A program made the translations under genes and the position numbers. A DNA stretch of 64,000 bases from contig NC_092655.1 of assembly GCF_032118995.1 (NCBI RefSeq), positions 14,461,223 through 14,525,222 on the forward strand. Reading direction: 5' to 3'. This document shows positions 1 through 40,721 of the stretch, piece after piece; position 1 is the stretch's first letter; each line of letters starts with the position of its first letter. This stretch comes from Asterias amurensis (lineage: Eukaryota). Below the pieces are notes generated by a model. It saw only the letters and a list, made by a program, of their open reading frames with translations. It did no database searches and was not told the DNA's origin.

Positions 1-755
1 CTTGTTCTGGAGTGAGGCTTGTGCAGTCTGTCAGTGTAGGTTCGGCTTGAAGGCTTTGGTTGGCGATGTTGCATGCTTCTTCGATTGATATGTTGGTGAA
101 CAGTGACACGACATCAAAACTGACAAGGATATCAGTTGGACGGAGATGTATGTGCTTGATGATGTCGACTAACTTGCTTGTGTTGTTGATGTGATGTTCA
201 GTGAGGCCAACTAGTCGATGGAGGTTCTTGGTGAGGTGTGTTGCAATGTTGTAAGAAGGTGAACCCTGGGAAGCCACGATGGGGCGGAGAGGACCATCTG
301 GCTTGTTGATCTTGGGTTGGCAGAAGAAACGTGGGCAGGTGAATGCGGATGGCTTGAGGTGACGGTACGTGGTGTTGTCTATGACTTGCGCTTGATAGAG
401 AGTACAGAGTTTGGTGGTGAGTGTGCGTTCAATGACTGGGCTGGGGTTCCTTGGCAGGCATTGGTAGCTATTAGTTGACAGGATTTCATTTACTTGGTGG
501 TCATAATCCGTTGTAGACATTACCATAGTGGCATTACCCTTGTCCGCTGACATGATGTGGATGGACTTGTCTTTGTGCAGGGCTCAGATATCAGCATTTT
601 CTCGCCTGCTTGTGTAGGGTCTTGGTAACTTGGCGTTTGAAGTCTTTGCAGAATTTGGATGCGGACTTGGTTGGCGACTGTCTTGTCCAGATGTTTGAGT
701 GCAGGTTCAGGGGACTGATTGATGTCTTTGACTTGAATCATGCGAGGTGTGCTGG
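1..755 (-). mobile_element. Penelope-like element of the N lineage. Only the 5' part is present (RT N-terminal region, cut off by the window edge). It lies head-to-head with the next element.
   Basis: The - strand ORF 520..783 is identical in type to 15786..16079 and 22545..22838. The sequence matches 15297-16050. Confidence 0.8.
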
Positions 756-1176
756 CGCCCACACATTGCACGATTCCAGTCAAAGATATTATTCAGTCTA
801 CCGAACCTGCGCTCAAACATCTAGACAAGACATTCGTCAACCATATCCGCATCCAGATTCTTCAAACTCTTCAAACACCAAGTTACCAAGACCCAACACA
901 AGCAAGCAAGAACACGCCGCTATCCGAGCCCTGCACAAAGACAAGTCTATCCACATCATTTCAACGAACATTGGTAATGCCACCGTGTTCATGTGCACAA
1001 CAGATTCTGACCACAAGGTAACCGACATCCTGTCAACTGATACCTACCGACGCCTGCCAAGTAACTCCTGTTCAGTCATCGAACGCACCCCCACTGCTAA
1101 ATTCTGCACTCTCTATCAAGCGCAGGTCATAGACAACACCATGTACCGTCACCTCAAGCCATCCGCATCCGCCTAA
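610..1176 (+). pseudogene. RT N-terminal segment of PLE P1a
   Basis: Its C-terminal half aligns to the N-lineage RT N-terminus 'MSADKGNATMVMSTTDYDHQVNEILSTNTYQCLPRNPSPVIERTLTTKLCTLYQAQVIDNTTYRHLKPSA'. Stops and frameshifts follow downstream at 1177-1440. Confidence 0.75.
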
Positions 1177-2917
1177 TCACGTTTTTTTGGCCAACCTTAA
1201 GAGCCACAAGCCAGATGTTCCTCTCCGTCCCATCGTGGCGTCCCGGGGTCACCCACCTACAATACTGCAAGACACCCCACCAAGACCCTTCATCCACTAG
1301 TTGGCCTCACTGAACATAACATTAACAACTCAAGCAAGTTCGTCGACATTATCAAATACATACATCTCCGCCCAACTGAGATCCTTGTCAGTTTTGACAT
1401 CATGTCACTATTCACCAACATACCAACTGAAGAAGCATGCAACATCGCCGAACAATGCCTTCAAGCCTAACCTACACTGACAGACCGCACAAGACTCACT
1501 CCAGAACAAGTCCACGACCTCCTTATCACATGTTCTCCGCTTTTAGATTCAGGTGGCGAGACAAATTCTACGAACAAACCTCTGGGGCCACCATGGGATC
1601 TCCTCTATCCCCGGTCCTGATGGATTTGTTCATGGAGGAGTTTTAACTTGACGGTATCAAGAACGCCAATCTTAGCCCCAACCTCAGGTTCCGCTACATT
1701 GACGACACCTTTGTGGTTTTGGCCCAACGGCAAGACAGCACTCCAAAAGTTCTTCCATCAACTGAACAGTCATTATCTACGTATCCGATTCAACATGGAA
1801 CAAGAACAAAACAATGCTATCTCCTTCCTAGGTGCCGAAGTAACAAGACAAGCTGATGGCACTCTAGCCCACACGGTACATCACAAGCCAACGCACACCA
1901 ACAGATACATTCACAACTCATTATTCCACCATCCTCGCATCAAGTCTGCTGTCTCCAACACCTTGGTCCGTTGGACCTTGGACACCTGTGACAAGGGCAG
2001 CTTGAAGCAGGAACTACAACACATCAAGACATCACGTCAACCTAATGGCTACAAAACTTTCAACCTCAGCGAGCCCAAGCCAAGTCTCACACCAGATGAA
2101 CTACCAGAGTTCAAGGCTGCAATCTCCCTCCCAAACATTGGCCTATCTTCTCACAAGCTTCAACGTATCTTCATTCAAGCTGAAGTCAAGACCTTCCATA
2201 CAGCATCAAACAAGATTCAAGCATCGCTCCACACACACAAGGACAAGCAAGACACTCGAGACAAAGCCAGCGTTTACCACATTCCCTGCGATTACTGTGA
2301 AGTATACATCGTGGAACCAGGGCGCAATATCTCAACAAGAATCAAGGAACACAAAGCACATGGCACACTGGAACACCTCAACAATTCAGCCATCATCAAA
2401 TATTCACACGAACACGACAGCATCATCAAGTGGAATCAAGCCAAACTCATAGCTCATGTACAGTCCTGTCACCAATGCAGAGTCGGGGAGGCCATCGATA
2501 TACAAGCACGCCATACAGTTCCAGAAGACATCGGTTTCTTCATTAACGACATCTGGTCACACATCCTCAAGCCAACCCTTCCAGCAGCAGCTCACCACAA
2601 GAATGTCACACTCCAATGCACACACATCCAGCCAGCAATCAACTCACATGCATTACCGGCCAAGAACAGCTTTGATCCATCCCGCCCAAATGCTCATCCA
2701 TCCAGCACTTCTAAAGTTCGACCATTGCCTGTAGTCCAACATTCTCCTGAAGACGAGCAGAATAAACTGTTAGAAACATCGAGACCAAACCTGCTCTTTC
2801 CAGAGCCAATACTCACCTTAAGAGGTTTACACATGGTTGTCCCTGTAAATTCTTATTTCTCCACACCATGCAAAGCTTCAAACAATACATATCCAAGATG
2901 GGATTAAATCGCAACAA
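755..2917 (+). mobile_element. Penelope-like retroelement of the P lineage (copy P1a). It is degenerate and carries RT plus a C-terminal GIY-YIG endonuclease.
   Basis: The RT N-terminal region (ORF 610..1176 '...DHKVTDILSTDTYRRLP...CTLYQAQVIDNTMYRHLKPS') is followed by a stop- and frameshift-riddled '(F)FGQP*...PLRPIV' region. The N lineage shows this region intact as 'FFCQPKIHKPDGPLRPIMAS'. RT motifs 'GSPLSPVLMDLFMEEF' and 'RYIDDTFVV' lie at about 1590-1715. A 419-aa ORF (1648..2907) holds the thumb and the GIY-YIG motif 'VYHIPCDYCEVYIVEPGRNISTRIKEHK...SAIIKYSHEHDSIIKW...RVGEAIDI'. Confidence 0.85.
1648..2907 (+). pseudogene. PLE P1a ORF covering the RT thumb, linker, GIY-YIG endonuclease and C-tail. 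It is out of frame with the upstream RT because of a 1-nt insertion after YIDDTFVV.
   Basis: The GIY-YIG core lies at about 2272-2560. The N lineage reads DTFVV-RPYDKTALQEFF continuously, whereas P has 'ttttgg' in place of 'ttagg'. An in-frame TAA at about 1645-1647 follows MEEF in this copy. Confidence 0.8.
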
Positions 2918-4110
2918 ACCTAGGTAGAATAGCTAGAGAATGATCTCTTTATACTCAAAACTCTATTTCGAGATGCATTTTTCTCATTGTCTGTATTTTT
3001 TCTTTAATTTTTTTACGGCGACGGTGAACCATCTGCCTATTGGAGACCAATGGAAACTGCACCATTCCAGTTGCGGCCATGAAGACATCAATGGGAGCTG
3101 TGTATCTTTGAGGAAAACGACAGAAAAAGGTAAGTTTACATTAAGGGACCGTAAGTTGTTGAGATTTATCCGGAAATCAAGATTATGTCTAGATTTAAAA
3201 GGGGCTCCATGCTAAAATTTAGCTTTGAAAATCACCAGTTTTCCAATTGCTAGAGTCCTCATGAAAAAAATCTAAACCTCGCAGCATGAATATTGTTCTA
3301 TGGTGAAAAGTATTTAATGAGAATAGTGATTTTGTAATAACTTGATTGGCATATATTTCAGGAGTCTGCAGTTCTGCTGGGGATGTGGTGTGCTACCTGC
3401 CGATGACCAAAAGCCATGATGCAACAGTGCCTGACTATGCGGACAGCATCCCAGCTGTCATTTAAGTGCACCAAACATAGGTAGATAGCTGGAGAATGAT
3501 CTCTTTAATCTCTAAACTCTGTTGGGGAAGTGCATTTTGCTAATAGTTTGTATTTGTCGTTTATTTTTTACGGCGACGGTGAACTGGTTAAATGTTTAAC
3601 CATCTGCCCATGGGAGTCCAGTGGAAACTGCACATGCCGGCCATGAAGTAATCATTGGGACCTTTGTACGCTGTGAGCAAAATGACAAGACAGGGTAAGT
3701 TTATTTTTAGTTTGATTGTTGGCAAATTTTGTGATTTTGACTGGAGCATAACTATTTTCCTCTTCTGGATTAGTGATGTGAAAAAAATAACATTGTATTA
3801 CATAAATGTGCCAAATACAACCTTGCAACATGAACTATAATTGTTCTACAGTAAAAAGTATTTGGTGAAAATAATTTCACTGAAATGTCTTAATTGACAT
3901 ATATTTCAGGAGTCTGCAGATCTGCTTGGGACACCTGCTGATAACAAGCACCAACATGAAAACAGCCGAGAGGATGCCTGCCTATGCGGACAACATCCCA
4001 GTTGTCATTGAAGTGCACCAAACATAGGTAGATAGCTAGAGAATGATCTCTTTAATCTCGAAACTTCATTTCGCAGTGCATTTCATTTGCTTGGATCCTT
4101 TTTGTTCTTA
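2918..4110 (+). repeat. Three tandem M modules (2918-3478, 3479-4025, and a truncated one at 4026-about 4110) that follow the PLE 3' end. Each has an exon-like block, a donor AG|GTAAGTTT, an intron of about 230 bp and an acceptor TTTCAG|GAGTCTGCAG. The boundary motif is 'ataggtagatagctagagaatgatctctttaatctc'.
   Basis: Donors lie at about 3130 and 3699. Acceptors lie at about 3361 and 3903. The boundary motif lies at 2918, 3478 and 4025. The modules are about 70% identical to each other, yet the splice-signal blocks are conserved. Confidence 0.7.
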
Positions 4111-11470: not shown

Positions 11471-13028
11471 AGGAACAGCTATCGTCCAATCATTTGCCTC
11501 CTTTGACCCCAGTGAAGGCGCTGAACAGATCGTTAATTAAAAGAGTCACTGGTCTCAAAGATCAGTAATGTGATTAACGCACGAAAGAGATTGGAACCAT
11601 CAAAAGCTCAAAATATGACCCATTCGGCTCGGTCCGTTAACAGCGCCAGCCACCAACCCGGTCATTACCACGCAGTGAAGACCGGGTACGAACACTGTTA
11701 TTCCCTAAATAAACCACAAGGGAAGTTGACTGGGTACCTTTTTAAAATGACTGTGGGATGAACACAGACAAATTGACTAGAGCGGGATTTCAACCAACGA
11801 CCTCCGGTTTAACGATTATTTTACAATCATTTAAAAGTTTATAAAACGTAAAGGGTTTACAAAGAAAAATTTACAAGTTAACAATTAAATATAGTTTAGG
11901 CAACATTTAATGCTGGAAATATACAAAGTTTACAAAATATATATCGTTTTAAAATAATATATATATATATAAATTATTGGCGAAAGTAACTTTATCTCTC
12001 TCTCTCTGCGTCCACGTCCTTGCATAGCAACAGTTAAACAACAAGGCTGTAAGATCACGTCTTTCCCAAACGGAACAGTGTCCTGACCATAGAGCTATGC
12101 CTTTCTGCAGAGGGGCTCGCAACAACACAACTCCACACTGACGCTGTGTTATTGTGCCAAATCAAACACATTATCATTAAAAAGATGAATTGTATTCCCA
12201 TATGCAAAAATAATTGTTCTTAAGCACCTCGTACCGGCTCATGCTGTGCTCCGGCTGTGCTCTGATTTTTGTTGTCTTATTTAGAAATGTCACCCTTTTT
12301 CCCTACATGCAATGACTGAGTCTGGTTACCTGGTATGGAGTCCTTCTCATCTTCACATGCCCTGTAACCACTAGAATCCTGTTGATGGTAAAGCGGTACT
12401 CTATTACTTGGACACACCTTTAAATCATGGAACTCTACTGAGTTGTATTACCGCACAGAGGGATCACGTCCACCAAGAAAGGTATATTATCACCCCTACT
12501 ATCAGTAATGTAACTCTACTAACCAAACTTGCAAGTCCTATACCCAGTTACTGCATGCGCAGCGTTGCACACTAACCTAAATCTACCAAGCTCATATCCG
12601 AGCACGCTTGCGTGTGACATCTTAATCTCCAACTTCACACCATTCGTCATTGTCTACACGTCGTGTAACAACCACGCACCCCATTTACTACACGTTCATT
12701 CTTAAACTAAAATGGAATAACTCCATTCGAAGTGCACTTTTCTCATTTTTTATTTTGTTTTGTCTCATATTTTTTCGAAGACGGTGTCATGCCATTCCAG
12801 TACCGACCAAGAAGACATCATTGGGAGCTATGTACGCTGTGAGGAAAACGACAGGACCAGGTAAGTTTATTTTCAGTCTGATTAATAGCTTGGAAAGTAA
12901 TGAGGGAGCGTAATTTGTTAAGGTTTATCCTAAAATAAACATTTTGTTCAGATTTAAAGGGGGCTCCATGCTCTAATTTAGCTTTGTAATTCACAAATTT
13001 TCCATTTGCTGGAGTCAAGATGAAAATT

Positions 13029-13040
13029 GGGGGGGGGGGG
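13029..13040. repeat. G12 homopolymer run inside the M intron. Other G runs lie at 18625-18632, 19784-19796, 35470-35484 and 42288-42298.
   Basis: 'attggggggggggggactcgattatgtaagatgc', read directly. Confidence 0.9.
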
Positions 13041-13406
13041 ACTCGATTATGTAAGATGCTATTGTGTTTGATACCGTTCAATTGCAATTCAAATATAAAG
13101 GGCCATACATTTTTTGACAGAAATTCTTCAGTTTCATTTCCAAATTGTAATCAAAAGGACATCAAGTCTGGGTTAATGTACCGACCAATGGGGAGAGGGT
13201 GATGGTATGAAACGTTGCGAGAACCAACTCCCTCTGAATTAACATAGTTTTCGATTAAGAAGTAATTTCCATGAATTTGGAAATTCTTGATATGTGCGTA
13301 TTATATTGTTCCTTTACTAATTTATGCGGGTTTACTGTATTAATGTTTATTATAATGGTATTCGCTTTTGTACAGTTTATGGAGTGGGCGCAATGTAAAT
13401 GAACAA

Positions 13407-13850
<444 letters not shown>

Positions 13851-14436
13851 ACTCAAGGACCCAATTTTGGGATGCTCTTTGAAATAATGGACCAATTTAA
13901 GGTGAAGGTTTTACAAATTGATATTTTGACTTGATTGACATATTTTCAGGAGTCTGCAGTTCTGCTGGGAATGTGGTGTACTACCTGTCGATGACTGAAG
14001 CTCACAAAACATAGGTACATAGCTAGAGAATTATCTCTTTAATCTCGTCTTCAGGGGAATGCTGGAATGCAGGCGGCGCCGGTGGTGGAGCTTAAGTTGC
14101 GCTGGATGGATGAGCATTTGGGAGGGAAGGATCAGAGCTGTTCTTGGCCGGTGATGCATGAGAGTTAATTGCTGGCTGGATGTGAATTGCATTGGAGTGT
14201 GACATTCTTTAGGTGAGCTGCTGCTGGGAGGGTTGGCTCGAGGATGGGTGACCAGATGTCCATAATGAAGAAACCTATGTCTCGTGGAACTTTATGATGT
14301 GCTTGTTTCTCGATTGCCTCCCTGACTCTGCATTGGTGTCAGGACTGTACAGGAGCTTCGAGTTCGGCTTGATTCCAATTGATGATGTGGTCGTGTTCTT
14401 GTGAATGTTTGATGATGGCTGATTTGTCGAGGTGTC

Positions 14437-15213
14437 TCAGTCTGCCATGTGCTTTGTGTCCTTGCTTCTTGTCGAGATGCTGCGCCAGGTTTCCGCGAAG
14501 TACACTTTACCGCAATCACAGGGAATGCGGTAAACGCCTGCTTTGTCTTGAGTGTCTCGCTTGTCCTTGTGTGTGTGGAGTGATGCTTGAATCTTGTTTG
14601 GTGCTGTGTGGAAGATCTTGACTTGAGCTTGACTGCAGATACTTTGAAACTTGTGAGAAGTGTGGCCGATATATGGGAGGGTGATTGCAGCCTTGAACTC
14701 TGGTTGTTCTTCTGTTGTGAGACTTGGCTTGGGCTGGCTAAGATTGAATGTCTTGTAGTCGTTAAGTTGAAGTGAAGTCTTGATGTGGTGTAGTTCCTGC
14801 TTCAAGCTGCCTTTGTCACAGGTGTTGAAGGCCCAGCAAACCAAGGTGTTGCAGACAGCAGACTTGAAGCGAGGATGATGGAATGATGAGTTGTGAAGGT
14901 ATCTATCGGGGTGTTTTGGCTTGCGATGTACCGTTTGGGCTATAGTGCCATCAGCTTGTCTTGTTACTTGGACGTCTAGGACGGAGATAGTGTTGTTTTG
15001 TTCTTGTTCCATGGTGAATTGGATGTGTGGATGTTGACTGTTCGGGTGATGGAAGAACTCTTGGAGTGCTGTCTTGTCGTAAGGCCTAACCACAAAGGTG
15101 TCGTTAATGTAGCGGAGCCAGAGGTTAGGGCAAAGATTGACCTTCTCGATGCTGTCAAGTTCAAACTCCCCCATGAACAAATCTGCCAGGACCGAGGATA
15201 GAGGATATCTCAT
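14437..15213 (-). pseudogene. PLE N1a RT core, thumb and start of GIY-YIG. The GIY-YIG domain is disrupted by a 1-nt deletion ('ggaacac' to 'ggacac').
   Basis: After the deletion the frame reads 'KDTKHMADWDTSTNQPSSNIH' in place of the P-lineage 'KEHKAHGTLEHLNNSAIIKYSHEH'. N2a (21034..21852) carries the same lesion. Confidence 0.75.
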
Positions 15214-15246
15214 GGCGGCCCCAGAGGTTTGTTCATAGAATTTGTC

Positions 15247-15849
15247 TCAACACCTGAAGCCGGAAGCGTAGACGCTGGTGATGAGGAGGTCGTGGACTTG
15301 TTCTGGAGTGAGGCTTGTGCGGTCTGTCAGTGTAGGTTCGGCTTGAAGGCTTTGGTTGGCGATGTTGCATGCTTCTTCGATTGGTATGTTGGTGAACAGT
15401 GACACGACATCAAAACTGACAAGGATATCAGTTGGACGGAGATGTATGTGCTTGATGATGTCGACTAACTTGCTTGTGTTGTTGATGTGATGTTCAGTGA
15501 GGCCAACTAGTCGATGGAGTTTCTTGGTGAGGTGTGTTGCAATGTTGTAAGAAGGTGAACCCTGGGAAGCCATGATGGGGCGGAGAGGACCATCTGGCTT
15601 GTGGATCTTGGGTTGGCAGAAGAAACGTGGGCAGGTGAATGCGGATGGCTTGAGGTGACGGTACGTGGTGTTGTCTATGACTTGCGCTTGATAGAGAGTA
15701 CAGAGTTTGGTGGTGAGTGTGCGTTCAATGACTGGGCTGGGGTTCCTTGGCAGGCATTGGTAGGTATTAGTTGACAGGATTTCATTTACTTGGTGGTCAT
15801 AATCCGTTGTAGACATGACCATAGTGGCATTACCCTTGTCCGCTGACAT
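15247..15849 (-). pseudogene. PLE N1a RT N-terminal segment (200 aa, open)
   Basis: 'MSADKGNATMVMSTTDYDHQVNEILS...FFCQPKIHKPDGPLRPIMASQGSPSYNIATHLTKKL...ILVSFDVVSLFTNIPIEEA'. Confidence 0.75.
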
Positions 15850-16033
15850 GATGTGGATGGACTTGTCTTTGTGCAGGGCTCAGATATCAGCATTTTCTCG
15901 CCTGCTTGTGTAGGGTCTTGGTAACTTGGCGTTTGAAGTCTTTGCAGAATTTGGATGCGGACTTGGTTGGCGACTGTCTTGTCCAGATGTTTGAGTGCAG
16001 GTTCAGGGGACTGATTGATGTCTTTGACTTGAA

Positions 16034-16069
16034 TCATGCGAGGTGTGCTGGCGCCCACACATTGCACGA
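16034..16069. other. Inversion junction between the head-to-head N1a and P2a 5' ends, centred on the palindrome GGCGCC
   Basis: N homology runs leftward from about 16034 ('IQVKDINQSPEPALKHLDKT' on the - strand). P homology runs rightward from about 16069 ('IPVKDMIQSTEPALKHLDKT' on the + strand). The spacer 'gtgtgctggcgcccacac' is nearly self-complementary. Confidence 0.7.
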
Positions 16070-18214
16070 TTCCAGTCAAAGATATGATTCAGTCTACCGA
16101 ACCTGCACTCAAACATCTAGACAAGACATTCGTCAACCATGTCCGCATCCAGATTCTTCAAACTCTTCAAACACCAAGTTACCAAGACCCAACACAAGCA
16201 AGCAAGAACATGCCGCTATCCGAGCCCTGCACATAGACAAGTCTATCCACATCATTTCAACGAACATTGGTAATGCCACCGTGTTCATGTGCACAACAGA
16301 TTCTGACCACAAGGTAACCGACATCCTGTCAACTGATACCTATTGACGCCTGCCAAGTAACTCCTGTTCAGTCATCGAACGCACCCCCACTGCTAAATTC
16401 TGCACTCTCTATCAAGCGCAGGTCATGGACAACACCATGTACCGTCACCTCAAGCCATACGCATCCGCCTAATCACGTTTTTTTGGCCAACCTTAAGGGC
16501 CACAAGCCAGATGTTCCTCTCCGTCCCATCGTGGCGTCCCGGGGTCACCCACCTACAATACTGCAAGACACCCCACCAAGACCCTTCATCCACTAGTTGG
16601 CCTCACTGAACATAACATTAACAACTCAAGCAAGTTCGTCGACATTATCAAATACATACATCTCCGTCCAACTGAGATCCTTGTCAGTTTTGACATCATG
16701 TCACTATTCACCAACATACCAACTGAAGAAGCATGCAACATCGCCGAACATTGCCTTCAAGCCTAACCTACACTTACACACCGCACAAGACTCACTCCAG
16801 AACAAGTCCACGACCTCCTTATCACCTGCTTCTCCGCTTTTAGATTCAGGTGGCGAGACAAATTCTACGAACAAACCTCTGGGGCCACCATGGGATCTCC
16901 TCTATCCCCAGTCCTGATGGATTTGTTCATGGAGGAGTTTTAACTTGACGGTATCAAGAACGCCAATCTTAGCCCCAACCTCAGGTTCCGCTACATTGAC
17001 GACACCTTTGTGGTTTTGGCCCAACAGCAAGACAGCACTCCAAAAGTTTTTCCATCAACTGAACAGTCAATATCTACGTATCCGATTCAACATGGAACAA
17101 GAACAAAACAATGCTATCTCCTTCCTAGGTGCCGAAGTAACAAGACAAGCTGATGGCACTCTAGCCCACACGATACATCACAAGCCAACGCACACCAACA
17201 GATACGTTCACAACTCATTATTCCACCATTCTCGCTTCAAGTCTGCTGTCTCCATCACCTTGGTCCGTTGGACCTTGGACACCTGTGACAAGGGCAGCTT
17301 GAAGCAGGAACTACAACACATCAAGACATCACGTCAACTTAATGGCTACAAAACTTTCAACCTCAGCGAGCCCAAGCCAAGTCTCACAACAGATGAACTA
17401 CCAGAGTTCAAGGCTGCAATCTCCCTCTCAAACATTGGCCTATCTTCTCACAAGCTTCAACGTATCTTCATTCAAGCTCAAGTCAAGACCTTCCATACAG
17501 CATCAAACAAGATTCAAGCATCACTCCACACACACAAGGACAAGCAAGACACTCGAGACAAAGCCAGCGTTTACCACATTCCCTGCGATTACTGTGAAGT
17601 ATACATCGTGGAACCAGGGCGCAATATCTCAACAAGAATCAAGGAACACAAAGCACATGGCACACTGGAACACCTCAACAATTCAGCCATCATCAAATAT
17701 TCACACGAACACGACAGCATCATCAAGTGGAATCAAGCCAAACTCATAGCTCATGTACAGTCCTGTCACCAATGCAGAGTCCGGGAGGCCATCGATATAC
17801 AAGCACGCCATACAGTTCCAGAAGACATCGGTTTCTTCATTAACGACATCTGGTCACACATCCTCAAGCCAACCCTTCCAGCAGCAGCTCACCACAAGAA
17901 TGTCACACTCCAATGCACACACATCCAGCCAGCAATCAACTCACATGCATTACCGGCCAAGAACAGCTTTGATCCATCCCGCCCAAATGCTCATCCATCC
18001 AGCACTTCTAAAGTTCGACCATCGCCTGTAGTCCAGCATTCTCCTGAAGACGAGCAGAATATACTGTTAGAAACATCAAGGCCAAACCTGCTCTTTCCAG
18101 AGCCAATACTCACCTTAAGAGGTTTACACATGGTTGTCCCCGTAAATTCTTATTTCTCCACACCATGCAAAGCTTCAAACAATACATATCCAAGATGGGA
18201 TTAAATCGCAACAA
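16051..18214 (+). mobile_element. Penelope-like retroelement of the P lineage (P2a). It is degenerate and about 97% aa identical to P1a in the 419-aa thumb and GIY-YIG ORF.
   Basis: ORFs 16036..16236 and 15906..16346 (in-frame stop at about 16343), and 16945..18204 (419 aa). The frameshift after YIDDTFVV is the same as in P1a. Confidence 0.85.
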
Positions 18215-20806
18215 ATCTAGGTAGAATAGCTAAAGAATGATTTCTTTATACTCAAAACTCTATTTCGAGATGCATTTTTCTCATTGTCTGTATTTTTTCT
18301 TTAATTTTTTTACGGCGACGGTGATCCATCTGCCTATTGGAGACCAACGGAAACTGCACCATTCCAGTTGCGGCCATGAAGACATCAATGGGAGCTGTGT
18401 ATCTTCGAGGAAAACGACAGGAAAAGGTAAGTTTATTTTAAGGTGGATTGATAGCTTGGGAAGTAATGAGGGACCGTATTGATAGCTTGGGAAGTAATGA
18501 GGGACCGTAAGTTGTTGAGATTTATCCTGAAATCAAGATTATGTCTAGATTTAAAAGGGGCTCCATGCTCAAATTTAGCTTTGTAATTCACAAATTTTCC
18601 ATTTGCTGGAGTCAAGATGAAAACTGGGGGGGGACTCGATTATGTAAGATGCTATTGTGTTTGATACCCTTCAATTGCAATTCAAATATAAAGGGCCATA
18701 CATTTTTGGACAGAAATTCTACAGTTTCATTTCCAAAATGTAATCAAAAGGACATCAAGTCTGAGCTTATGTACAGACCAATTTGTTTTTGCTGTATGAT
18801 GATGTCATGCTCTGAAAGAGCGCAATTTGTTTTCTGCACCATTTTAACTTGACATAGAGTCATGCGGTGTCCCCAAACTCCACTCACATGTTGGAAAATG
18901 AATGCATCACAAAACTCAAATTCACAAAAACTCAAAACTCAAGATCCACATCATTTACATTTTTGAGCGAAACTGTTTGCTTTTTTGGATTTTGGATTTT
19001 GAAGCAAACACTTTGGTACATGAGAAAATAAATACAGTGAAAAGTATTTGACGTGAGTGTATATATATGGTGTCCTGATTGAAATGTATTTCAGGAGTCT
19101 GCGTTTATGGTTTAAAGGCAGTGGACACTATTGTTAGTTACTCAAAATAATTATTATCGTCAAACCTTACTTGGTAACTAGGAATGGGGAGAGGGTGATG
19201 GTATAAAACATTGCGAGAACCAACTCCCTCTGAATTAACGTAGTTTTCGATAAAGAAGTAGTTTTCCCTGAATTTGGTGCTCTGATTTTTGTCCTACCAA
19301 TTTATGCATGCGCAGCGTTGCACACTAACCTAAATCTACCAAGCTCATATCCGAGCATGCTTGCGTGTGACATCTTAATCTCCAACTTCACACCATTCGT
19401 CATTGTCTACACGTCGTGTAACAACCACGCACCCCTTTTATTACACCTTCATTCTTAAACTAAAATGGAATAACTCTGATTCGAAGTGCACTTTCCTCAG
19501 TTTTTGTTTTGTTTTGTCTTATATTTTTTCGAAGACGGTGTCATGCCATTCCAGTACCGACCAAGAAGACATCATTGGGAGCTATGTACGCTGTGAGGAA
19601 ACCGACAGGACAGGTAAGTTCATTTTCAGTTTGAATGATAGCTTAGAAAGTAATGAGGGAGAGTAATTTGTTAAGGTTTATCTTAAAATAAACATTTTGT
19701 TCAGATTTAAAAGGGGCTCCACGCTCTAATTTAGCTTGGTTATTCACAAATTTTCCATTTGCTGGAGTCAAGATGAAAATTGGGGGGGGGGGGGACTCGA
19801 TTATGTAAGATGCTATCGTGTTTGATACCCTTCAATTGCAATTCAAATATAAAGGGCCATACATTTTTGGACAGAAATTCTTCAGTTTCATTTCCAAATT
19901 GTCATCAAAAGGACATCAAGTCTGAGTTAATGTACCGACCAATGGGGAGAGGGTGATGGTATAAAACGTTGCGAGAACCAACTCCCTCTGAATTAAAATA
20001 GTTTTCGATTAAGAAGTAATTTTCCATGAATTTGGAAATTCTTGGATTGTGCATATATTGTTCCTTTACTAATATGTGGGTTTACTGTATTAATGTTTTG
20101 CAATTTGTCCTGTAAGGTTCTTGTTCATTCAATTGTTTGGATTATTATAATGTTATCCGCTTTTGTACAGCTTATGGAATGGGCGCAATGGTAATGAACA
20201 AACTATTATTATTAATATTACTATTATTATTAGTTTTTGTTTCGAGACCTCAGCATTTGATTTTGAGGTTTCGAAATCAAGCATCTGAAAGCACATAAGT
20301 TTGTGTAACAAGGGTGGGTGTGCTTTCTTTCATTATTGTCTTGCAACTTCGACGATCAATTGAGCTCAAAGTTTCACAAGTTTTTACTTCATGCATATGT
20401 TGACATACGTCACCAAGAGTGAGGACTGGGCTTTGACAATTACCTATAGTGTCCAGTGTCTTTAAGCCTTTAGTCCACAAACTGTCCTGTCGGTTTCTTC
20501 GCAAAAAGTTCTTGAAAGTTGGTTTAATGGAAATAACAAGTTCATGACAATTGTTCGACTGTAAAGAAAATTTGAGAGAAAGAAAGCATAACAAATTATC
20601 ATCGAAAAACTCAAGGACCCAATTTTGGGATGCTCTTTGTAATAATGGACCAATTTAAGGTGGAGGTTTTACACTTAATATTTTGACTTGATTGACATAT
20701 TTTCAGGAGTCTGCAGTTCTGCTGGGAATGTGGTGTACTACCTGTCGATGACTGAAGCTCACAAAACATAGGTACATAGCTAGAGATTTATCTCTTTATA
20801 ATCTCG
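18215..20806 (+). repeat. Two long M modules (about 18215-19300 and about 19300-20806). Donors GTAAGTT lie at about 18427 and about 19617. Acceptors lie at about 19090 and about 20706. A G13 run lies at about 19784. A degenerate microsatellite remnant lies at about 20195-20250.
   Basis: Homology to 12505-14040 and 2918-4110. 'ctattattattaatattactattattattagtttttgtttcgag' is the eroded counterpart of the (ATT)n/(GTT)n tract. Confidence 0.6.
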
Positions 20807-22811
20807 TCTTCAGGGGAATGCTGGAATGCAGGCGGCGCCGGTGGTGGAGCTTAAGTTGCGCTGGATGGATGAGCATTTGGGAGGGAAGGATCAGAGCTGT
20901 TCTTGGCCGGTGATGCGTGAACGTTGATTGCTGGCTGGATGTGAATTGCATTGGAGTGTAACATTCTTTAGGTGAGCTGCTGCTGGGAGGGTTGGCTCGA
21001 GGATTGGTGACCAGATGTCCATAATGAAGAAACCTATGTCTCGTGGAACTTTATGATGTGCTTGTATCTCGATGGCCTCCCTGACTCTGCATTGGTGTCA
21101 GGACTGTACAGGAGCTTTGAGTTCGGCTTGATTCCAATTGATGATGTGGTCGTGTTCTTGTGAATGTTTGATGATGGCTGATTTGTCGAGGTGTCCCAGT
21201 CTGCCATGTGCTTTGTGTCCTTGATTCTTGTTGAGATGCTGCGCCAGGTTTCCGCGAAGTACACTTTACTGCAATCACAGGGAATGCGGTAAACGCCTGC
21301 TTTGTCTTGAGTGTCTCGCTTGTCCTTGTGTGTGTGGAGTGATGCTTGAATCTTGTTTGGTGCTGTGTGGAAGATCTTGACTTGAGCTTGACTGAAGATA
21401 CTTTGAAACTTGTGAGAAGTGTGGCCGATATCTGGGAGGGTGATTGCAGCCTTGAACTCTGGTTGTTCATCTGTTGTGAGACTTGGCTTGGGCCGGCTAA
21501 GATTGAATGTCTTGTAGTCGTTAAGTTGAAGTGAAGTCTTGATGTGGTGTAGTTCCTGCTTCAAGCTGCCTTTGTCACAGATGTTGAAGGCCCAGCAAAC
21601 CAAGGTGTTGCAGACAGCAGACTTGAAGCGAGGATGATGGAATGATGAGTTGTGAAGGTATCTATCGGGGTGTTTTGGCTTGCGATGTACCGTTTGGGCT
21701 ATAGTGCCATCAGCTTGTCTTGTTACTTGGACGTCTAGGACAGAGATAGTGTTGTTTTGTTCTTGTTCCATGGTGAATTGGATGTGTGGATGTTGACTGT
21801 TCAGGTGATGGAAGAACTCTTGGAGTGCTGTCTTGTCGTAAGGCCTAACCACAAAGGTGTCGTTAATGTAGCGGAGCTAGAGGTTAGGGCAAAGATTGAC
21901 CTTCTCGATGCTGTCAAGTTCAAACTCCTCCATGAACAAATCTGCCAGGACCGGGGATAGAGGATATCTCATGGCGGCCCCAGAGGTTTGTTCATAGAAT
22001 TTGTCTCACCACCTGAAGCTGGAAGCGTAGACGCTGGTGATGAGGAGGTCGTGGACTTGTTCTGGAGTGAGGCTTGTGCAGTCTGTCAGTGTAGGTTCGG
22101 CTTGAAGGCTTTGGTTGGCGATGTTGCATGCTTCTTCGATTGATATGTTGGTGAACAGTGACACGACATCAAAACTGACAAGGATATCAGTTGGACGGAG
22201 ATGTATGTGCTTGATGATGTCGACTAACTTGCTTGTGTTGTTGATGTGATGTTCAGTGAGGCCAACTAGTCGATGGAGGTTCTTGGTGAGGTGTGTTGCA
22301 ATGTTGTAAGAAGGTGAACCCTGGGAAGCCACGATGGGGCGGAGAGGACCATCTGGCTTGTTGATCTTGGGTTGGCAGAAGAAACGTGGGCAGGTGAATG
22401 CGGATGGCTTGAGGTGACGGTACGTGGTGTTGTCTATGACTTGCGCTTGATAGAGAGTACAGAGTTTGGTGGTGAGTGTGCGTTCAATGACTGGGCTGGG
22501 GTTCCTTGGCAGGCATTGGTAGCTATTAGTTGACAGGATTTCATTTACTTGGTGGTCATAATCCGTTGTAGACATGACCATAGTGGCATTACCCTTGTCC
22601 GCTGACATGATGTGGATGGACTTGTCTTTGTGCAGGGCTCAGATATCAGCATTTTCTCGCCTGCTTGTGTAGGGTCTTGGTAACTTGGCGTTTGAAGTCT
22701 TTGCAGAATTTGGATGCGGACTTGGTTGGCGACTGTCTTGTCCAGATGTTTGAGTGCAGGTTCAGTGGACTGATTGATGTCTTTGACTTGAATCATGCGA
22801 GGTGTGCTGGC
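20800..22811 (-). mobile_element. Penelope-like retroelement of the N lineage (N2a), head-to-head with P1b
   Basis: The - strand ORFs are 22545..22838, 22006..22608 and 21034..21852. The last reads through to 'GVYRIPCDCSKVYFAETWRSISTRIKDTKHMADWDTS...' and shows the shared GIY-YIG frameshift. Confidence 0.85.
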
Positions 22812-24973
22812 GCCCACACATTGCACGATTCCAGTCAAAGATATTATTCAGTCTACCGAACCTGCGCTCAAACATCTAGACAAGACATTCGTCAACCATA
22901 TCCGCATCCAGATTCTTCAAACTCTTCAAACACCAAGTTACCAAGACCCAACACAAGCAAGCAAGAACACGCCGCTATCCGAGCCCTGCACAAAGACAAG
23001 TCTATCCACATCATTTCAACGAACATTGGTAATGCCACCGTGTTCATGTGCACAACAGATTCTGACCACAAGGTAACCGACATCCTGTCAACTGATACCT
23101 ACCGACGCCTGCCAAGTAACTCCTGTTCAGTCATCGAACGCACCCCCACTGCTAAATTTTGCACTCTCTATCAAGCGCAGGTCATAGACAACACCATGTA
23201 CCGTCACCTCAAGCCATCCGCATCCGCCTAATCACGTTTTTTTGGCCAACCTTAAGAGCCACAAGCCAGATGTTCCTCTCCGTCCCATCGTGGCGTCCCG
23301 GGGTCACCCACCTACAATACTGCAAGACACCCCACCAAGACCCTTCATCCACTAGTTGGCCTCACTGAACATAACATTAACAACTCAAGCAAGTTCGTCG
23401 ACATTATCAAATACATACATCTCCGCCCAACTGAGATCCTTGTCAGTTTTGACATCATGTCACTATTCACCAACATACCAACTGAAGAAGCATGCAACAT
23501 CGCCGAACAATGCCTTCAAGCCTAACCTACACTGACAGACCGCACAAGACTCACTCCAGAACAAGTCCACGACCTCCTTATCACCTGCTTCTCCGCTTTT
23601 AGATTCAGGTGGCGAGACAAATTCTACGAACAAACCTCTGGGGCCACCATGGGATCTCCTCTATCCCCGGTCCTGATGGATTTGTTCATGGAGGAGTTTT
23701 AACTTGACGGTATCAAGAACGCCAATCTTAGCCCCAACCTCAGGTTCCGCTACATTGACGACACCTTTGTGGTTTTGGCCCAACGGCAAGACAGCACTCC
23801 AAAAGTTCTTCCATCAACTGAACAGTCATTATCTACGTATCCGATTCAACATGGAACAAGAACAAAACAATGCTATCTCCTTCCTAGGTGCCGAAGTAAC
23901 AAGACAAGCTGATGGCACTCTAGCCCACACGGTACATCACAAGCCAACGCACACCAACAGATACATTCACAACTCATTATTCCACCATCCTCGCATCAAG
24001 TCTGCTGTCTCCAACACCTTGGTCCGTTGGACCTTGGACACCTGTGACAAGGGCAGCTTGAAGCAGGAACTACAACACATCAAGACATCACGTCAACCTA
24101 ATGGCTACAAAACTTTCAACCTCAGCGAGCCCAAGCCAAGTCTCACACCAGATGAACTACCAGAGTTCAAGGCTGCAATCTCCCTCCCAAACATTGGCCT
24201 ATCTTCTCACAAGCTTCAACGTATCTTCATTCAAGCTCAAGTCAAGACCTTCCATACAGCATCAAACAAGATTCAAGCATCGCTCCACACACACAAGGAC
24301 AAGCAAGACACTCGAGACAAAGCCAGCGTTTACCACATTCCCTGCGATTACTGTGAAGTATACATCGTGGAACCAGGGCGCAATATCTCAACAAGAATCA
24401 AGGAACACAAAGCACATGGCACACTGGAACACCTCAACAATTCAGCCATCATCAAATATTCACACGAACACGACAGCATCATCAAGTGGAATCAAGCCAA
24501 ACTCATAGCTCATGTACAGTCCTGTCACCAATGCAGAGTCGGGGAGGCCATCGATATACAAGCACGCCATACAGTTCCAGAAGACATCGGTTTCTTCATT
24601 AACGACATCTGGTCACACATCCTCAAGCCAACCCTTCCAGCAGCAGCTCACCACAAGAATGTCACACTCCAATGCACACACATCCAGCCAGCAATCAACT
24701 CACATGCATTACCGGCCAAGAACAGCTTTGATCCATCCCGCCCAAATGCTCATCCATCCAGCACTTCTAAAGTTCGACCATTGCCTGTAGTCCAACATTC
24801 TCCTGAAGACGAGCAGAATAAACTGTTAGAAACATCGAGACCAAACCTGCTCTTTCCAGAGCCAATACTCACCTTAAGAGGTTTACACATGGTTGTCCCT
24901 GTAAATTCTTATTTCTCCACACCATGCAAAGCTTCAAACAATACATATCCAAGATGGGATTAAATCGCAACAA
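22812..24973 (+). mobile_element. PLE of the P lineage (P1b), the copy-B counterpart of 755-2917
   Basis: ORFs 22665..23231 and 23704..24963 are near-identical to 610..1176 and 1648..2907. Confidence 0.85.
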
Positions 24974-36547: not shown

Positions 36548-38557
36548 AATCTCGTCTTCAGGGGAATGCTGGAATGCAGGCGGCGCCGGTGGTGGAGCTT
36601 AAGTTGCGCTGGATGGATGAGCATTTGGGAGGGAAGGATCAGAGCTGTTCTTGGCCGGTGATGCATGAGAGTTAATTGCTGGCTGGATGTGAATTGCATT
36701 GGAGTGTGACATTCTTTAGGTGAGCTGCTGCTGGGAGGGTTGGCTCGAGGATGGGTGACCAGATGTCCATAATGAAGAAACCTATGTCTCGTGGAACTTT
36801 ATGATGTGCTTGTTTCTCGATTGCCTCCCTGACTCTGCATTGGTGTCAGGACTGTACAGGAGCTTCGAGTTCGGCTTGATTCCAATTGATGATGTGGTCG
36901 TGTTCTTGTGAATGTTTGATGATGGCTGATTTGTCGAGGTGTCTCAGTCTGCCATGTGCTTTGTGTCCTTGCTTCTTGTCGAGATGCTGCGCCAGGTTTC
37001 CGCGAAGTACACTTTACCGCAATCACAGGGAATGCGGTAAACGCCTGCTTTGTCTTGAGTGTCTCGCTTGTCCTTGTGTGTGTGGAGTGATGCTTGAATC
37101 TTGTTTGGTGCTGTGTGGAAGATCTTGACTTGAGCTTGACTGCAGATACTTTGAAACTTGTGAGAAGTGTGGCCGATATATGGGAGGGTGATTGCAGCCT
37201 TGAACTCTGGTTGTTCTTCTGTTGTGAGACTTGGCTTGGGCTGGCTAAGATTGAATGTCTTGTAGTCGTTAAGTTGAAGTGAAGTCTTGATGTGGTGTAG
37301 TTCCTGCTTCAAGCTGCCTTTGTCACAGGTGTTGAAGGCCCAGCAAACCAAGGTGTTGCAGACAGCAGACTTGAAGCGAGGATGATGGAATGATGAGTTG
37401 TGAAGGTATCTATCGGGGTGTTTTGGCTTGCGATGTACCGTTTGGGCTATAGTGCCATCAGCTTGTCTTGTTACTTGGACGTCTAGGACGGAGATAGTGT
37501 TGTTTTGTTCTTGTTCCATGGTGAATTGGATGTGTGGATGTTGACTGTTCGGGTGATGGAAGAACTCTTGGAGTGCTGTCTTGTCGTAAGGCCTAACCAC
37601 AAAGGTGTCGTTAATGTAGCGGAGCCAGAGGTTAGGGCAAAGATTGACCTTCTCGATGCTGTCAAGTTCAAACTCCCCCATGAACAAATCTGCCAGGACC
37701 GAGGATAGAGGATATCTCATGGCGGCCCCAGGGGTTTGTTCATAGAATTTGTCTCACCACCTGAAGTTGGAAGCGTAGACGCTGGTGATGAGGAGGTCGT
37801 GGACTTGTTCTGGAGTGAGGCTTGTGCGGTCTGTCAGTGTAGGTTCGGCTTGAAGGCTTTGGTTGGCGATGTTGCATGCTTCTTCGATTGGTATGTTGGT
37901 GAACAGTGACACGACATCAAAACTGACAAGGATATCAGTTGGACGGAGATGTATGTGCTTGATGATGTCGACTAACTTGCTTGTGTTGTTGATGTGATGT
38001 TCAGTGAGGCCAACTAGTCGATGGAGTTTCTTGGTGAGGTGTGTTGCAATGTTGTAAGAAGGTGAACCCTGGGAAGCCATGATGGGGCGGAGAGGACCAT
38101 CTGGCTTGTGGATCTTGGGTTTGCAGAAGAAACGTGGGCAGGTGAATGCGGATGGCTTGAGGTGACGGTACGTGGTGTTGTCTATGACTTGCGCTTGATA
38201 GAGAGTACAGAGTTTGGTGGTGAGTGTGCGTTCAATGACTGGGCTGGGGTTCCTTGGCAGGCATTGGTAGGTATTAGTTGACAGGATTTCATTTACTTGG
38301 TGGTCATAATCCGTTGTAGACATGACCATAGTGGCATTACCCTTGTCCGCTGACATGATGTGGATGGACTTGTCTTTGTGCAGGGCTCAGATATCAGCAT
38401 TTTCTCGCCTGCTTGTGTAGGGTCTTGGTAACTTGGCGTTTGAAGTCTTTGCAGAATTTGGATGCGGACTTGGTTGGCGACTGTCTTGTCCAGATGTTTG
38501 AGTGCAGGTTCAGGGGACTGATTGATGTCTTTGACTTGAATCATGCGAGGTGTGCTG
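36548..38557 (-). mobile_element. PLE of the N lineage (N1b)
   Basis: The - strand ORFs 36944..37720, 37754..38356 and 38293..38586 are near-identical to the N1a ORFs. Confidence 0.85.
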
Positions 38558-40721
38558 GCGCCCACACATTGCACGATTCCAGTCAAAGATATTATTCAGT
38601 CTACCGAACCTGCACTCAAACATCTAGACAAGACATTCGTCAACCATGTCCGCATCCAGATTCTTCAAACTCTTCAAACACCAAGTTACCAAGACCCAAC
38701 ACAAGCAAGCAAGAACATGCCGCTATCCGAGCCCTGCACATAGACAAGTCTATCCACATCATTTCAACGAACATTGGTAATGCCACCGTGTTCATGTGCA
38801 CAACAGGTTCTGACCACAAGGTAACCGACATCCTGTCAACTGATACCTATTGACGCCTGCCAAGTAACTCCTGTTCAGTCATCGAACGCACCCCCACTGC
38901 TAAATTCTGCACTCTCTATCAAGCGCAGGTCATGGACAACACCATGTACCGTCACCTCAAGCCATCCGCATCCGCCTAATCACGTTTTTTTGGCCAACCT
39001 TAAGGGCCACAAGCCAGATGTTCCTCTCCGTCCCATCGTGGCGTCCCGGGGTCACCCACCTACAATACTGCAAGACACCCCACCAAGACCCTTCATCCAC
39101 TAGTTGGCCTCACTGAACATAACATTAACAACTCAAGCAAGTTCGTCGACATTATCAAATACATACATCTCCGTCCAACTGAAATCCTTGTCAGTTTTGA
39201 CATCATGTCACTATTCACCAACATACCAACTGAAGAAGCATGCAACATCGCCGAACATTGCCTTCAAGCCTAACCTACACTTACACACCGCACAAGACTC
39301 ACTCCAGAACAAGTCCACGACCTCCTTATCACCTGCTTCTCCGCTTTTAGATTCAGGTGGCGAGACAAATTCTACGAACAAACCTCTGGGGCCACCATGG
39401 GATCTCCTCTATCCCCAGTCCTGATGGATTTGTTCATGGAGGAGTTTTAACTTGACGGTATCAAGAACGCCAATCTTAGCCCCAACCTCAGGTTCCGCTA
39501 CATTGACGACACCTTTGTGGTTTTGGCCCAACAGCAAGACAGCACTCCAAAAGTTTTTCCATCAACTGAACAGTCAATATCTACGTATCCGATTCAACAT
39601 GGAACAAGAACAAAACAATGCTATCTCCTTCCTAGGTGCCGAAGTAACAAGACAAGCTGATGGCACTCTAGCCCACACGGTACATCACAAGCCAACGCAC
39701 ACCAACAGATACGTTCACAACTCATTATTCCACCATCCTCGCATCAAGTCTGCCGTCTCCAACACCTTGGTCCGTTGGACCTTGGACACCTGTGACAAGG
39801 GCAGCTTGAAGTAGGAACTACAACACATCAAGACATCACGTCAACCTAATGGCTACAAAACTTTCAACCTCAGCGAGCCCAAGCCAAGTCTCACACCAGA
39901 TGAACTACCAGAATTCAAGGCTGCAATCTCCCTCCCAAACATTGGCCTATCTTCTCACAAGCTTCAACGTATCTTCATTCAAGCTCAAGTCAAGACCTTC
40001 CATACAGCATCAAACAAGATTCAAGCATCACTCCACACACACAAGGACAAGCAAGACACTCGAGACAAAGCCGTCGTTTACCACATTCCCTGCGATTACT
40101 GTGAAGTATACATCGTGGAACCAGGGCGCAATATCTCAACAAGAATCAAGGAACACAAAGCACATGGCACACTGGAACACCTCAACAATTCAGCCATCAT
40201 CAAATATTCACACGAACACGACAGCATCATCAAGTGGAATCAAGCCAAACTCATAGCTCATGTACAGTCCTGTCACCAATGCAGAGTCCGGGAGGCCATC
40301 GATATACAAGCACGCCATACAGTTCCAGAAGACATCGGTTTCTTCATTAGCGACATCTGGTCACACATCCTCAAGCCAACCCTTCCAGCAGAAGCTCACC
40401 ACAAGAATGTCACACTCCAATGCACACACATCCAGCCAGCAATCAACTCACATGCATTACCGGCCAAGAACAGCTTTGATCCATCCCGCCCAAATGCTCA
40501 TCCATCCAGCACTTCTAAAGTTCGACCATCGCCTGTAGTCCAGCATTCTCCTGAAGACGAGCAGAATATACTGTTAGAAACATCAAGGCCAAACCTGCTC
40601 TTTCCAGAGCCAATACTCACCTTAAGAGGTTTACACATGGTTGTCCCCGTAAATTCTTATTTCTCCACACCATGCAAAGCTTCAAACAATACATATCCAA
40701 GATGGGATTAAATCGCAACAA
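38558..40721 (+). mobile_element. PLE of the P lineage (P2b). An additional TAG at about 39812-39814 splits the 419-aa ORF.
   Basis: ORFs 39452..39814 ('...CDKGSLK*', where the other copies read CAG) and 40115..40711. Confidence 0.85.

Follow-up and report, generated by a model that had tools for sequence, protein, structure and literature searches.

Five head-to-head pairs of decayed Penelope-like element copies in Asterias amurensis with a probable origin in a single retrotransposition event

A stretch of 64,000 nucleotides from Asterias amurensis (NCBI RefSeq assembly GCF_032118995.1, contig NC_092655.1, positions 14,461,223 to 14,525,222 of the forward strand), here called the window, was analysed. 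It contains five head-to-head inverted pairs of Penelope-like element (PLE) copies, in each of which a minus-strand copy (N) and a plus-strand copy (P), with arms of about 2.0 kb, meet 5'-to-5'. The symmetry axes lie between positions 756 and 757, 16052 and 16053, 22811 and 22812, 38559 and 38560, and 45316 and 45317. The pair that was studied in most detail is bounded by 14044/14047 on the left and 18187/18210 on the right, and it very probably represents one ancient PLE retrotransposition that was born head-to-head, decayed in place and was later segmentally duplicated. The features of this pair are as follows.

13982..14046 (core 14004-14046), no strand: left copy of the target-site duplication (TSD), a direct repeat with 18211-18253
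14044..16052, minus strand: N arm, a 5'-truncated PLE copy with decayed reverse transcriptase (RT) and GIY-YIG domain
14457..14461 (~14459), minus strand: 1-nt deletion (-1) private to N, in the GIY-YIG domain, polarised with the related element L004
15931..15934 (~15933), minus strand: N copy of the shared 1-nt deletion, reading CTTCAA-ACGCCAAG where L004 has CTCAAGAACGCCAAG
16050..16055, no strand: GGCGCC enclosing the symmetry axis between 16052 and 16053, the reverse complement of GCC followed by GCC, spacer-free
16053..18054, plus strand: the part of the P arm that is homologous to N, a mirror-image 5'-truncated PLE copy; RVT_1 at 35 bits
16168..16171 (~16170), plus strand: P copy of the shared 1-nt deletion, reading CTTCAA-ACACCAAG
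17012..17016 (~17014), plus strand: 1-nt insertion (+1) private to P, after YIDDTFVV, polarised with L004
18055..18159, plus strand: P-only 3'-terminal segment, homologous to the 3' ends of L003, L004 and L005
18160..18187, plus strand: one-sided PLE tail CACACCATGCAAAGCTTCAAACAATACAT, with the tail motif common to L005 and L007
18188..18253 (core 18211-18253), no strand: right TSD copy, a direct repeat with the left copy

Comparison of 14044-18054 with its own reverse complement gave a single BLAST high-scoring segment pair of 4,024 columns (85.1% identity, E = 0). An earlier note on this DNA had described five N(-)/P(+) pairs with arms of about 2 kb; these pairs are real, their axes having now been located by alignment, and the outer coordinates given at that time (14041-18214) lie 3-6 nt on the left and 4-27 nt on the right from the limits derived here. 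The spacer of about 35 bp of non-homologous sequence that was thought to separate the arms does not exist. When P was aligned base by base with the reverse complement of N, homology extended from the axis outward (28/35 and 31/40 of the first columns were identical), and the sole irregularity near the centre was one 2-nt indel, 3 nt from the axis. All five axes share an identical 66-bp context centred on GGCGCC, as had been noted; this hexamer is nevertheless not a special motif, because every junction between inverted copies that lacks a spacer is palindromic. GGCGCC was consequently rejected as a meaningful site and is the automatic result of mirror symmetry. The same quasi-palindrome, of 4,011 bp and with an arm identity of 85.9%, was present in a SPAdes contig from an independent public assembly (L001; ENA ERZ4235598) that is 97.6-98% identical to the window locus, and an artefact of a single assembly is thereby ruled out.

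By their sequence the repeats are PLEs of the canonical endonuclease-containing (EN+) type with a C-terminal GIY-YIG domain. Despite stops and frameshifts, the translations of both arms are recognisable as a PLE-type protein with RT and GIY-YIG domains, and RT motifs can be read in them (SADKGNATMVM in N, YIDDTFVV in P). The repaired P protein matched Pfam RVT_1 at 35 bits (cut-off 29.6); the repaired N protein matched no Pfam family, which is attributed to decay. C-terminal to the RT, both arms carry a GIY-YIG motif with two Cys in its core (GVYRIPCDCSKVYFAET..R...R.KEH in N, GVYHIPCDYCEVYIVEPGRNISTRIKEH in P; core pattern IPCDC..VY..E). The Pfam GIY-YIG family (PF01541) was not detected on the decayed arms themselves and is recorded for several close homologues. 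A search with the repaired N protein returned 1,030 homologues at E <= 1e-20 (best 4.6e-204), all of them with RVT_1, DUF8422 and HTH_animal, the set found in PLE proteins. The best of these were echinoderm PLE-type proteins with 44-55% identity, from Asterias, Patiria, Acanthaster, Lytechinus, Strongylocentrotus, Diadema and Anneissia. No CX2-5CxxC linker was visible upstream of the GIY-YIG domain in the arm translations, which argues against a placement in the Neptune clade.

The arms are truncated at their 5' ends. One full-length homologue, P0002 (863 aa), could be aligned with each arm as far as the axis, which corresponds to its residue ~213-215, and the truncation is therefore genuine and lies inside the open reading frame (ORF); about 640 nt of the ORF, together with the 5' untranslated region, are missing from each arm. 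In four head-to-head insertions the 5' truncation point of the plus-strand copy was located near P0002 residues 168-215 (window 16052, L004 ~4917-4922, L006 5725-5791 and L007 5963). Such clustering may mark a template-switch hotspot or may reflect where conservation starts. The alignment starts of 120 homologues on P0002 were bimodal (0-24 and 175-224), and a hotspot at residues ~190-215 was set aside for want of clean evidence, the accumulation at 175-224 coinciding with the start of the conserved core.

The complex PLE insertion structure, 5' truncation with a head-to-head inverted copy, is present in the window and recurs in relatives. In assembly GCA_949826985.1 the pair in L007 has arms of 2,110 bp that are 99.86% identical, a 31-nt tail and a 10-bp TSD (ATCACATATT), and two intact ORFs of 777 and 605 aa are found at L007:3384-8072 (CATKWK010002964.1). 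This pair is apparently young and possibly active, and would be a good reference for the insertion mechanism. The same assembly holds a second head-to-head pair (L006) with 966-bp arms of 99.6% identity, and in Patiria miniata (GCA_015706575.1) a third pair (L005) has 262-bp arms of 98.9% identity, a 35-nt tail and an 11-bp TSD. The tails of L005 and L007 are at one end only, each with CACCATGCAAAG.TTCAAA, and the TSD surrounds the whole composite. L004, a related element with 74-75% nucleotide identity, served as the nearest outgroup. In L002 a minus-strand ORF lies upstream of the PLE gene without an inverted repeat.

The two outer ends of the window pair are unequal. The outer (3') end of N stops at ...CCTGAAGACGAG, within a hammerhead-like motif, so that ~105 nt at the end of the element body, and the tail, are missing from N. 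On the P side, homology to L004 runs past 18054 into the P-only segment. In this segment the 3' half of a minimal-hammerhead-like motif is followed at ~18084-18109 by a decayed stem-loop of histone type and at 18128-18133 by ACATGG, which resembles an ORF start. Ends at 18054 and at ~18133 were considered and rejected, as there was no TSD at either position; the true end was found from the L005-L007 tails. The tail motif CACCATGCAAAG.TTCAAA is present at 18163-18184, at the P end only.

The composite is enclosed by a TSD. The direct repeat was found in all four complete units with scores of 18.5-24.5, whereas 1,000 shuffled sequences scored at most 11.5 and 1,000 segments drawn at random from the genome at most 10.0 (p < 0.001 by both controls). 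Its core measures 41-43 bp, and the repeat probably extends to ~66 bp, with the left copy reaching back to 13982, since right-flank homology to the empty-site paralogues begins at 18188. A TSD of ~66 bp leaves a tail of ~28-32 nt, as in relatives; if the TSD consisted of the 41-43-bp core only, the tail would extend to 18210. At the N-side junction three nucleotides, CTC, are a microhomology between target and element. The TSD copies are 82-87% identical to each other, the same as the arms. Because TSD copies are identical at birth and these are as diverged as the arms, the arms were also identical at birth.

Unoccupied targets were found in the window itself. An artificial empty-site query (left flank, one TSD and right flank) matched 3448-3584 and 3995-4109, unbroken across the insertion point. 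These two paralogues carry the left-TSD sequence once and have copies one and two 22.5-kb periods away, at 25504-26165 and 48008-48669. They are part of a tandem repeat of ~557 bp, with units ~68-74% alike (2891-4560, 24947-26620 and 47452-49120), which was the insertion target. A target preference for the upstream (ATT)n microsatellite was rejected, since (ATT)n ends more than 200 bp away and the true target is the ~557-bp repeat.

The earlier note had regarded N and P as different lineages and not sister copies, with an arm identity of 75-80%. The actual identity is 85.1% in the raw alignment and 87.1%, with 15 gap columns, between reconstructed pre-duplication arms, from which mutations that arose after duplication of the units had been removed. 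Both arms end at the same element nucleotide without a spacer, and both carry the same 1-nt deletion. At this position the frame is intact in L004, P0002 and the further homologue P0012, which read ..LQTLKNAKLPRP.. in a single frame, so that the common ancestor of N and P already had a dead ORF. With L004 as the outgroup, 291 changes were common to N and P, 91 were specific to N and 122 specific to P; the 291 shared changes identify N and P as each other's closest relatives.

The differences between the arms follow the neutral pattern of decay in place. N and P differed at 16.0/11.2/16.8% of first, second and third codon positions, and omega by the Nei-Gojobori method (NG86) was 0.68 (bootstrap confidence interval 0.51-0.91). 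A neutral simulation with the observed transition bias, passed through the same omega estimator, gave 0.77 (0.58-1.02), with 23-34% of the runs at or below the observed value. Over both arms 7 stops were observed, compared to 8-9 expected from the simulation. Identity was even along the arms (standard deviation 3.26, binomial 3.35), which indicates that there were no conversion tracts between them; gene conversion between the arms was rejected on this basis. All of the stops are private to one arm, as are four further indels and the two frameshifts singled out previously, a +1 in P at ~17014 after YIDDTFVV and a -1 in N at ~14459 in the GIY-YIG domain. Both of these frameshifts exist and are derived. 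Private frameshifts are, however, what decay in place predicts, and they are no proof of separate lineages.

Two separately evolved PLE lineages might have come to lie head-to-head, through two insertions or through co-insertion of different RNAs. The arms do differ by 13-15%, each with its own frameshifts and stops, P has slightly more private changes than N, and omega is nominally below 1. This explanation is nonetheless extremely improbable. Separate lineages do not account for a common truncation nucleotide with no spacer, for a frameshift that relatives do not have, or for the 291 changes that N and P share relative to the nearest outgroup, and the neutral pattern with the stop count explains the whole of the divergence. 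In addition, one TSD surrounds both arms and neither arm has its own, the TSD copies have diverged as much as the arms, and young head-to-head pairs in relatives have arms that are 98.9-99.9% identical. Both arms are very probably the products of one insertion, not the union of two lineages.

A common origin of the arms would also result if a lone P copy had inserted first and N had arisen later by inverted duplication at the DNA level (replication template switching or fold-back repair), independently of PLE enzymology. Such a duplication would likewise explain why the palindrome has no spacer, why the frameshift is shared and why the divergence is neutral; the ~130 nt missing from the 3' terminus of N and a microhomology of only 3 nt at its outer junction are as template switching predicts, and the exact symmetry is atypical when compared to PLE insertions in relatives. 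The breakpoints would, however, have to coincide exactly with the junction between element and target and with the TSD boundary, with host DNA excluded. Neither host DNA in the arms nor arbitrary arm ends, the expectation for fold-back events, were found: the arms are purely element and the composite lies exactly between the TSD copies. At a resolution of ~40 nt the TSD is no more diverged than the arms, and the arms are hence as old as the insertion. Since PLEs are documented to form head-to-head pairs at insertion, and commonly do so, an extra mechanism is needless, and we regard a later DNA-level duplication as unlikely.

The five pairs are, on the evidence of their sequence identities and shared flanks, copies of one locus and not the products of five junction events. 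Self-comparison of the window revealed a 22.45-kb tandem repeat (6231-28971 and 28677-51473, 99.1% identity) and a unit of ~4.6 kb that is present five times (1-3146, cut by the start of the window; 13830-18443; 20588-25202; 36337-40950; 43092-47707). Units of type A have axes at 16052 and 38559, and units of type B at 756, 22811 and 45316; A and B are 98.3% identical, and units of the same type 99.1-99.9%. The matrix of identities, together with the shared flanks, gives the history of duplication: the locus with its flanks was duplicated at a spacing of ~6.8 kb (A/B, 1.7% divergence), and a second duplication within the 22.45-kb tandem repeat (0.1-0.9% divergence) produced the five copies in the window. 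The earlier note had reasoned that differing junctions would mean independent origins. The junctions are identical, only because the whole of a single ancestral locus, flanks included, was segmentally duplicated. The remaining units and the empty sites are listed below.

1..2890, no strand: Unit 1, B type, axis between 756 and 757; same insertion, N arm incomplete because the window begins within it
3448..4109, plus strand: two empty-site paralogues (3448-3584 and 3995-4109) within the ~557-bp tandem repeat
20803..24946, no strand: Unit 3, B type, axis between 22811 and 22812; duplicate insertion with the same TSD
36551..40694, no strand: Unit 4, A type, axis between 38559 and 38560; copy of the 16052 unit by the 22.5-kb duplication
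43307..47451, no strand: Unit 5, B type, axis between 45316 and 45317; duplicate insertion

The 5'-to-5' inverted arrangement is, as the earlier note stated, a documented hallmark of PLEs (PMC8557442; PMC3846280). PLEs regularly have a tail at one end only and, beside the 5' end, inverted copies with 5' truncation (PMC8557442), and palindromes at head-to-head junctions of PLEs have been read as a sign of self-priming (PMC3846280). In contrast to R2 and L1, a PLE protein that was purified cuts and extends each of the two target strands; its reverse transcription starts at two internal sites, with the tail being the sequence between them (PMC11167929).

These reports, combined with the structure of the locus, suggest the following sequence of events. 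The element would have inserted into the ~557-bp tandem repeat as a spacer-less pair of identical 5'-truncated copies, ending at about residue 213 of an ORF of ~860 aa and both already bearing the 1-nt frameshift at birth. The PLE enzyme would nick and extend both target strands, and reverse transcription would begin at two sites: the P arm would be primed at the true 3' end of the element and retain the one-sided tail, and synthesis of the N arm would start inside the element, where 3 nt are microhomologous to the target. Self-priming or a template jump at the template's 5' end could then have linked the two cDNAs, or have let one be synthesised on the other, with a perfect palindrome as the result. 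Symmetry would follow if the RT copied a truncated template up to its 5' end and then moved, by either a template jump or a snap-back, onto the other cDNA or the nascent one. A single event very probably produced [TSD]-N(-)-P(+)-tail-[TSD], after which both arms decayed neutrally by ~13%, to 87% identity, gaining private stops and frameshifts.

Several observations weigh against formation in one retrotransposition event followed by neutral decay. The enzymatic steps that we infer are taken from the literature on other PLEs. Exact symmetry of truncation is unusual for a PLE, L004, L005, L006 and L007 all being asymmetric, and N is missing ~105 nt of body as well as the tail, whereas the arms of young relatives differ by the tail only, a loss that implies either unusually internal priming or trimming at the N end. 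No hammerhead was matched by Rfam in the whole window at the gathering threshold or in 13500-18700 at E <= 10. Strictly neutral decay of arms of the same age leads to an expectation of equal private counts, and yet P has 122 private changes and N 91 (Tajima's relative-rate test, p = 0.034). This asymmetry could be explained by strand-asymmetric mutation acting on oppositely oriented copies or by noise in the reconstruction, and a few per cent of divergence may have preceded the insertion. Finally, an omega below 1 and a slight shortage of differences at codon position 2 (p = 0.012) are inside the simulated neutral range, yet may allow a small selected component.

A read-through transcript of the pair is predicted to fold as one imperfect hairpin of ~2 kb, in accordance with the earlier suggestion that such inverted repeats can form hairpins. 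In the predicted fold of the 14044-18054 transcript all 1,794 base pairs span the axis, with a free energy of -3109 kcal/mol compared to about -1250 kcal/mol for shuffled sequences, and there are 13 perfect duplex runs of at least 21 nt, or 23 if G:U pairs are counted. Formation of a hairpin RNA from this locus is thus physically possible on the folding model, and the amplified 2-kb hairpin might conceivably be a source of small RNAs. A mir-54 match at the axis (Rfam, 24.9 bits, gathering score 70) was rejected, as it reflects the hairpin shape only. The central 66 bp were unchanged in all five copies, and this identity argues against ongoing instability at the centre since the duplications, as far as the copies in the window can tell.

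It might be proposed that the pair was maintained or amplified as a source of hairpin RNA, processed to endogenous small interfering RNAs (endo-siRNAs) or PIWI-interacting RNAs (piRNAs), that silences this PLE family. The single predicted hairpin with its 13 (23 with G:U) perfect runs of at least 21 nt, the presence of the locus in five or more copies, and a rotifer precedent, Adineta vaga, in which small-RNA profiles change polarity between the halves of inverted PLE copies (PMC3846280), all speak for such a role. The arms, however, decay as fast as neutral sequence and show no trace of either conservation or concerted evolution, and the amplified block includes several kilobases of satellite and other repeats, which suggests passive segmental duplication. 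Maintenance as a silencing locus is accordingly considered very unlikely, and the preferred explanation remains a single insertion that decayed neutrally and was carried along by duplication of its surroundings.

PLE-type minimal-hammerhead-like motifs were recognised by eye at the 3' end of the window element (~18039-18082, decayed) and in relatives (L004:6885-6925 and its inverted copy, L003 ~3611-3656, L006 ~7867-7905 and L007 ~7991-8030). In relatives the motif has the layout CUGANGA, a bulged base, a 6-bp helix II, GAAA and a palindromic helix III of 2-4 nt, as published for minimal hammerhead ribozymes (PMC4209133). The N arm ends 3 nt into helix II. The Rfam hammerhead models matched none of the motifs in relatives even at E <= 10, these being recognised by inspection only, and Rfam gave no other credible RNA in the whole window at the gathering threshold or in 13500-18700 at E <= 10.

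A histone-mRNA 3' stem-loop lies directly 3' of the hammerhead-like motif in both copies of L004, at 6927-6972 (+) and 4697-4742 (-). These matched the Rfam Histone3 model at 34.8 and 33.6 bits (gathering score 34, E ~1e-7). A decayed stem-loop is located in the P tail of the window at ~18084-18109, with equivalents in the other four units, and L003 (~3668-3683), the main element of L005 and another Patiria fragment (L005 ~15423) have a hairpin of 6 bp with a 4-nt loop at the same position, as does L004 at ~12063; further stem-loop positions are L005 ~8470 and L004 ~1681. In several echinoderm-type PLEs the stem-loop thus has the hammerhead-like motif on one side and the ACATGG ORF start on the other; it is missing from L006 and L007. 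In an alignment of nine sequences 94% of the cells pair and 2/6 pairs have compensatory double changes (variants GGCUCU/AGAGCC, GGUUCU/AGAACC and AGUUCU/AGAACU). In the library that was searched, no full text connected a histone stem-loop with Penelope elements or with transposable elements. The P-only 3' module might be a functional compound RNA element of an echinoderm PLE clade, composed of a minimal hammerhead and a histone-type stem-loop, a tentative idea that we rather doubt. If true, these PLEs would borrow the SLBP/U7 pathway for poly(A)-independent 3'-end formation or translation.

When L001:5905-5945 was compared to window 18039-18095, clustered changes, such as TCATGAAGA, GCGGAG and TTTACTACGTCGAGACC, were seen in the hammerhead-like region relative to all five window copies. 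L001 is ~98% identical elsewhere, and some of its states look ancestral (ACGTCGAGACC, CCGG); a sixth paralogue or a different individual may be its source.

The remainder of the window is rich in repeats. Satellite arrays with periods of ~293, 392 and 399 bp occupy 5177-7327, 27233-29773 and 49737-55063. The third array is expanded (a 399-bp unit x8, 98% identity, at 51878-55052), and copy number therefore differs between the 22.45-kb repeats. The (ATT)n microsatellite (13407-13715 and 35854-36210, 51 and 60 units) lies ~330 bp upstream of the A-type units only and is followed by CTGTCG/CTGTTG-type repeats to ~13830 and ~36337; the sequence upstream of B-type units is different. A dispersed repeat family flanks the PLE units with 82-90% identity (12541-13437, 19295-20232, 34986-35884 and 41810-42736; further matches at 12792-13189, 18359-18782 and 19546-19943) and predates the A/B duplication. 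There is a 31-bp minisatellite at 59355-59900 (17 copies, 89% match). No tRNAs were detected in the window by ARAGORN, and no protein-coding host gene was found in it.

As first posed, the finding matters little, since the two-lineage twist that made it seem unusual fails. The combination of palindrome, shared frameshift, one-sided tail, long TSD and empty sites instead points to a mirror PLE pair that was made in one integration, in agreement with the biochemistry of a PLE enzyme that primes on both target strands. The equal divergence of TSD copies and arms provides an internal clock. Annotators should be wary of taking diverged inverted arms for separate subfamilies, and identical junctions within one region may reflect segmental duplication only.

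In LINE-1 twin priming both target strands prime reverse transcription in one event, leaving an inversion inside a single TSD-flanked insertion. The window pair resembles this process in its proposed two-strand priming, its inversion and its single TSD. The LINE-1 product, however, has an inversion/deletion junction between two parts of one copy and not two full mirror copies, and LINE-1 uses an APE endonuclease and belongs to a different element class.

Compared to the pairs in L005, L006 and L007, the window pair is of the same protein clade (44-57% amino acid identity to P0002 or to the query) and has the same tail motif, composite TSD and inverted arms. Those pairs are young (98.9-99.9%) and asymmetric, with intact ORFs in L007, whereas the window pair is at 85-87% identity, symmetric and embedded in a segmentally duplicated satellite region. 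Penelope/Poseidon-type PLE insertions (Evgen'ev & Arkhipova 2005; Arkhipova 2006; Craig et al. 2021, PMC8557442) share with it the RT and the C-terminal two-Cys GIY-YIG domain, and also head-to-head copies, 5' truncation, a one-sided tail, a variable-length TSD around the unit and, as judged by eye, a minimal-hammerhead-like terminal motif. They typically consist of a short inverted pseudo-long terminal repeat (pLTR) beside a longer copy, in contrast to the symmetric 2 x 2.0-kb palindrome seen here. The window TSD is also long (at least 41 bp, perhaps ~66 bp) when compared to the 8-11 bp of the relatives examined, and, unlike typical insertions of this type, the window copy is old and dead, with an N arm that lacks ~105 nt of the 3' body. 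Pen2 and Pen3 of Adineta vaga (Arkhipova et al. 2013, PMC3846280) are similarly head-to-head, with a TSD around the composite and a palindromic junction that has been attributed to self-priming during a single insertion. Their palindromes are 18-38 bp at the ends of inverted pLTRs of ~200 bp, whereas the window palindrome is the entire 2-kb arm pair, and both the host and the PLE family differ. Set beside these systems, the window structure is an old, dead example of a well-described kind of PLE insertion.

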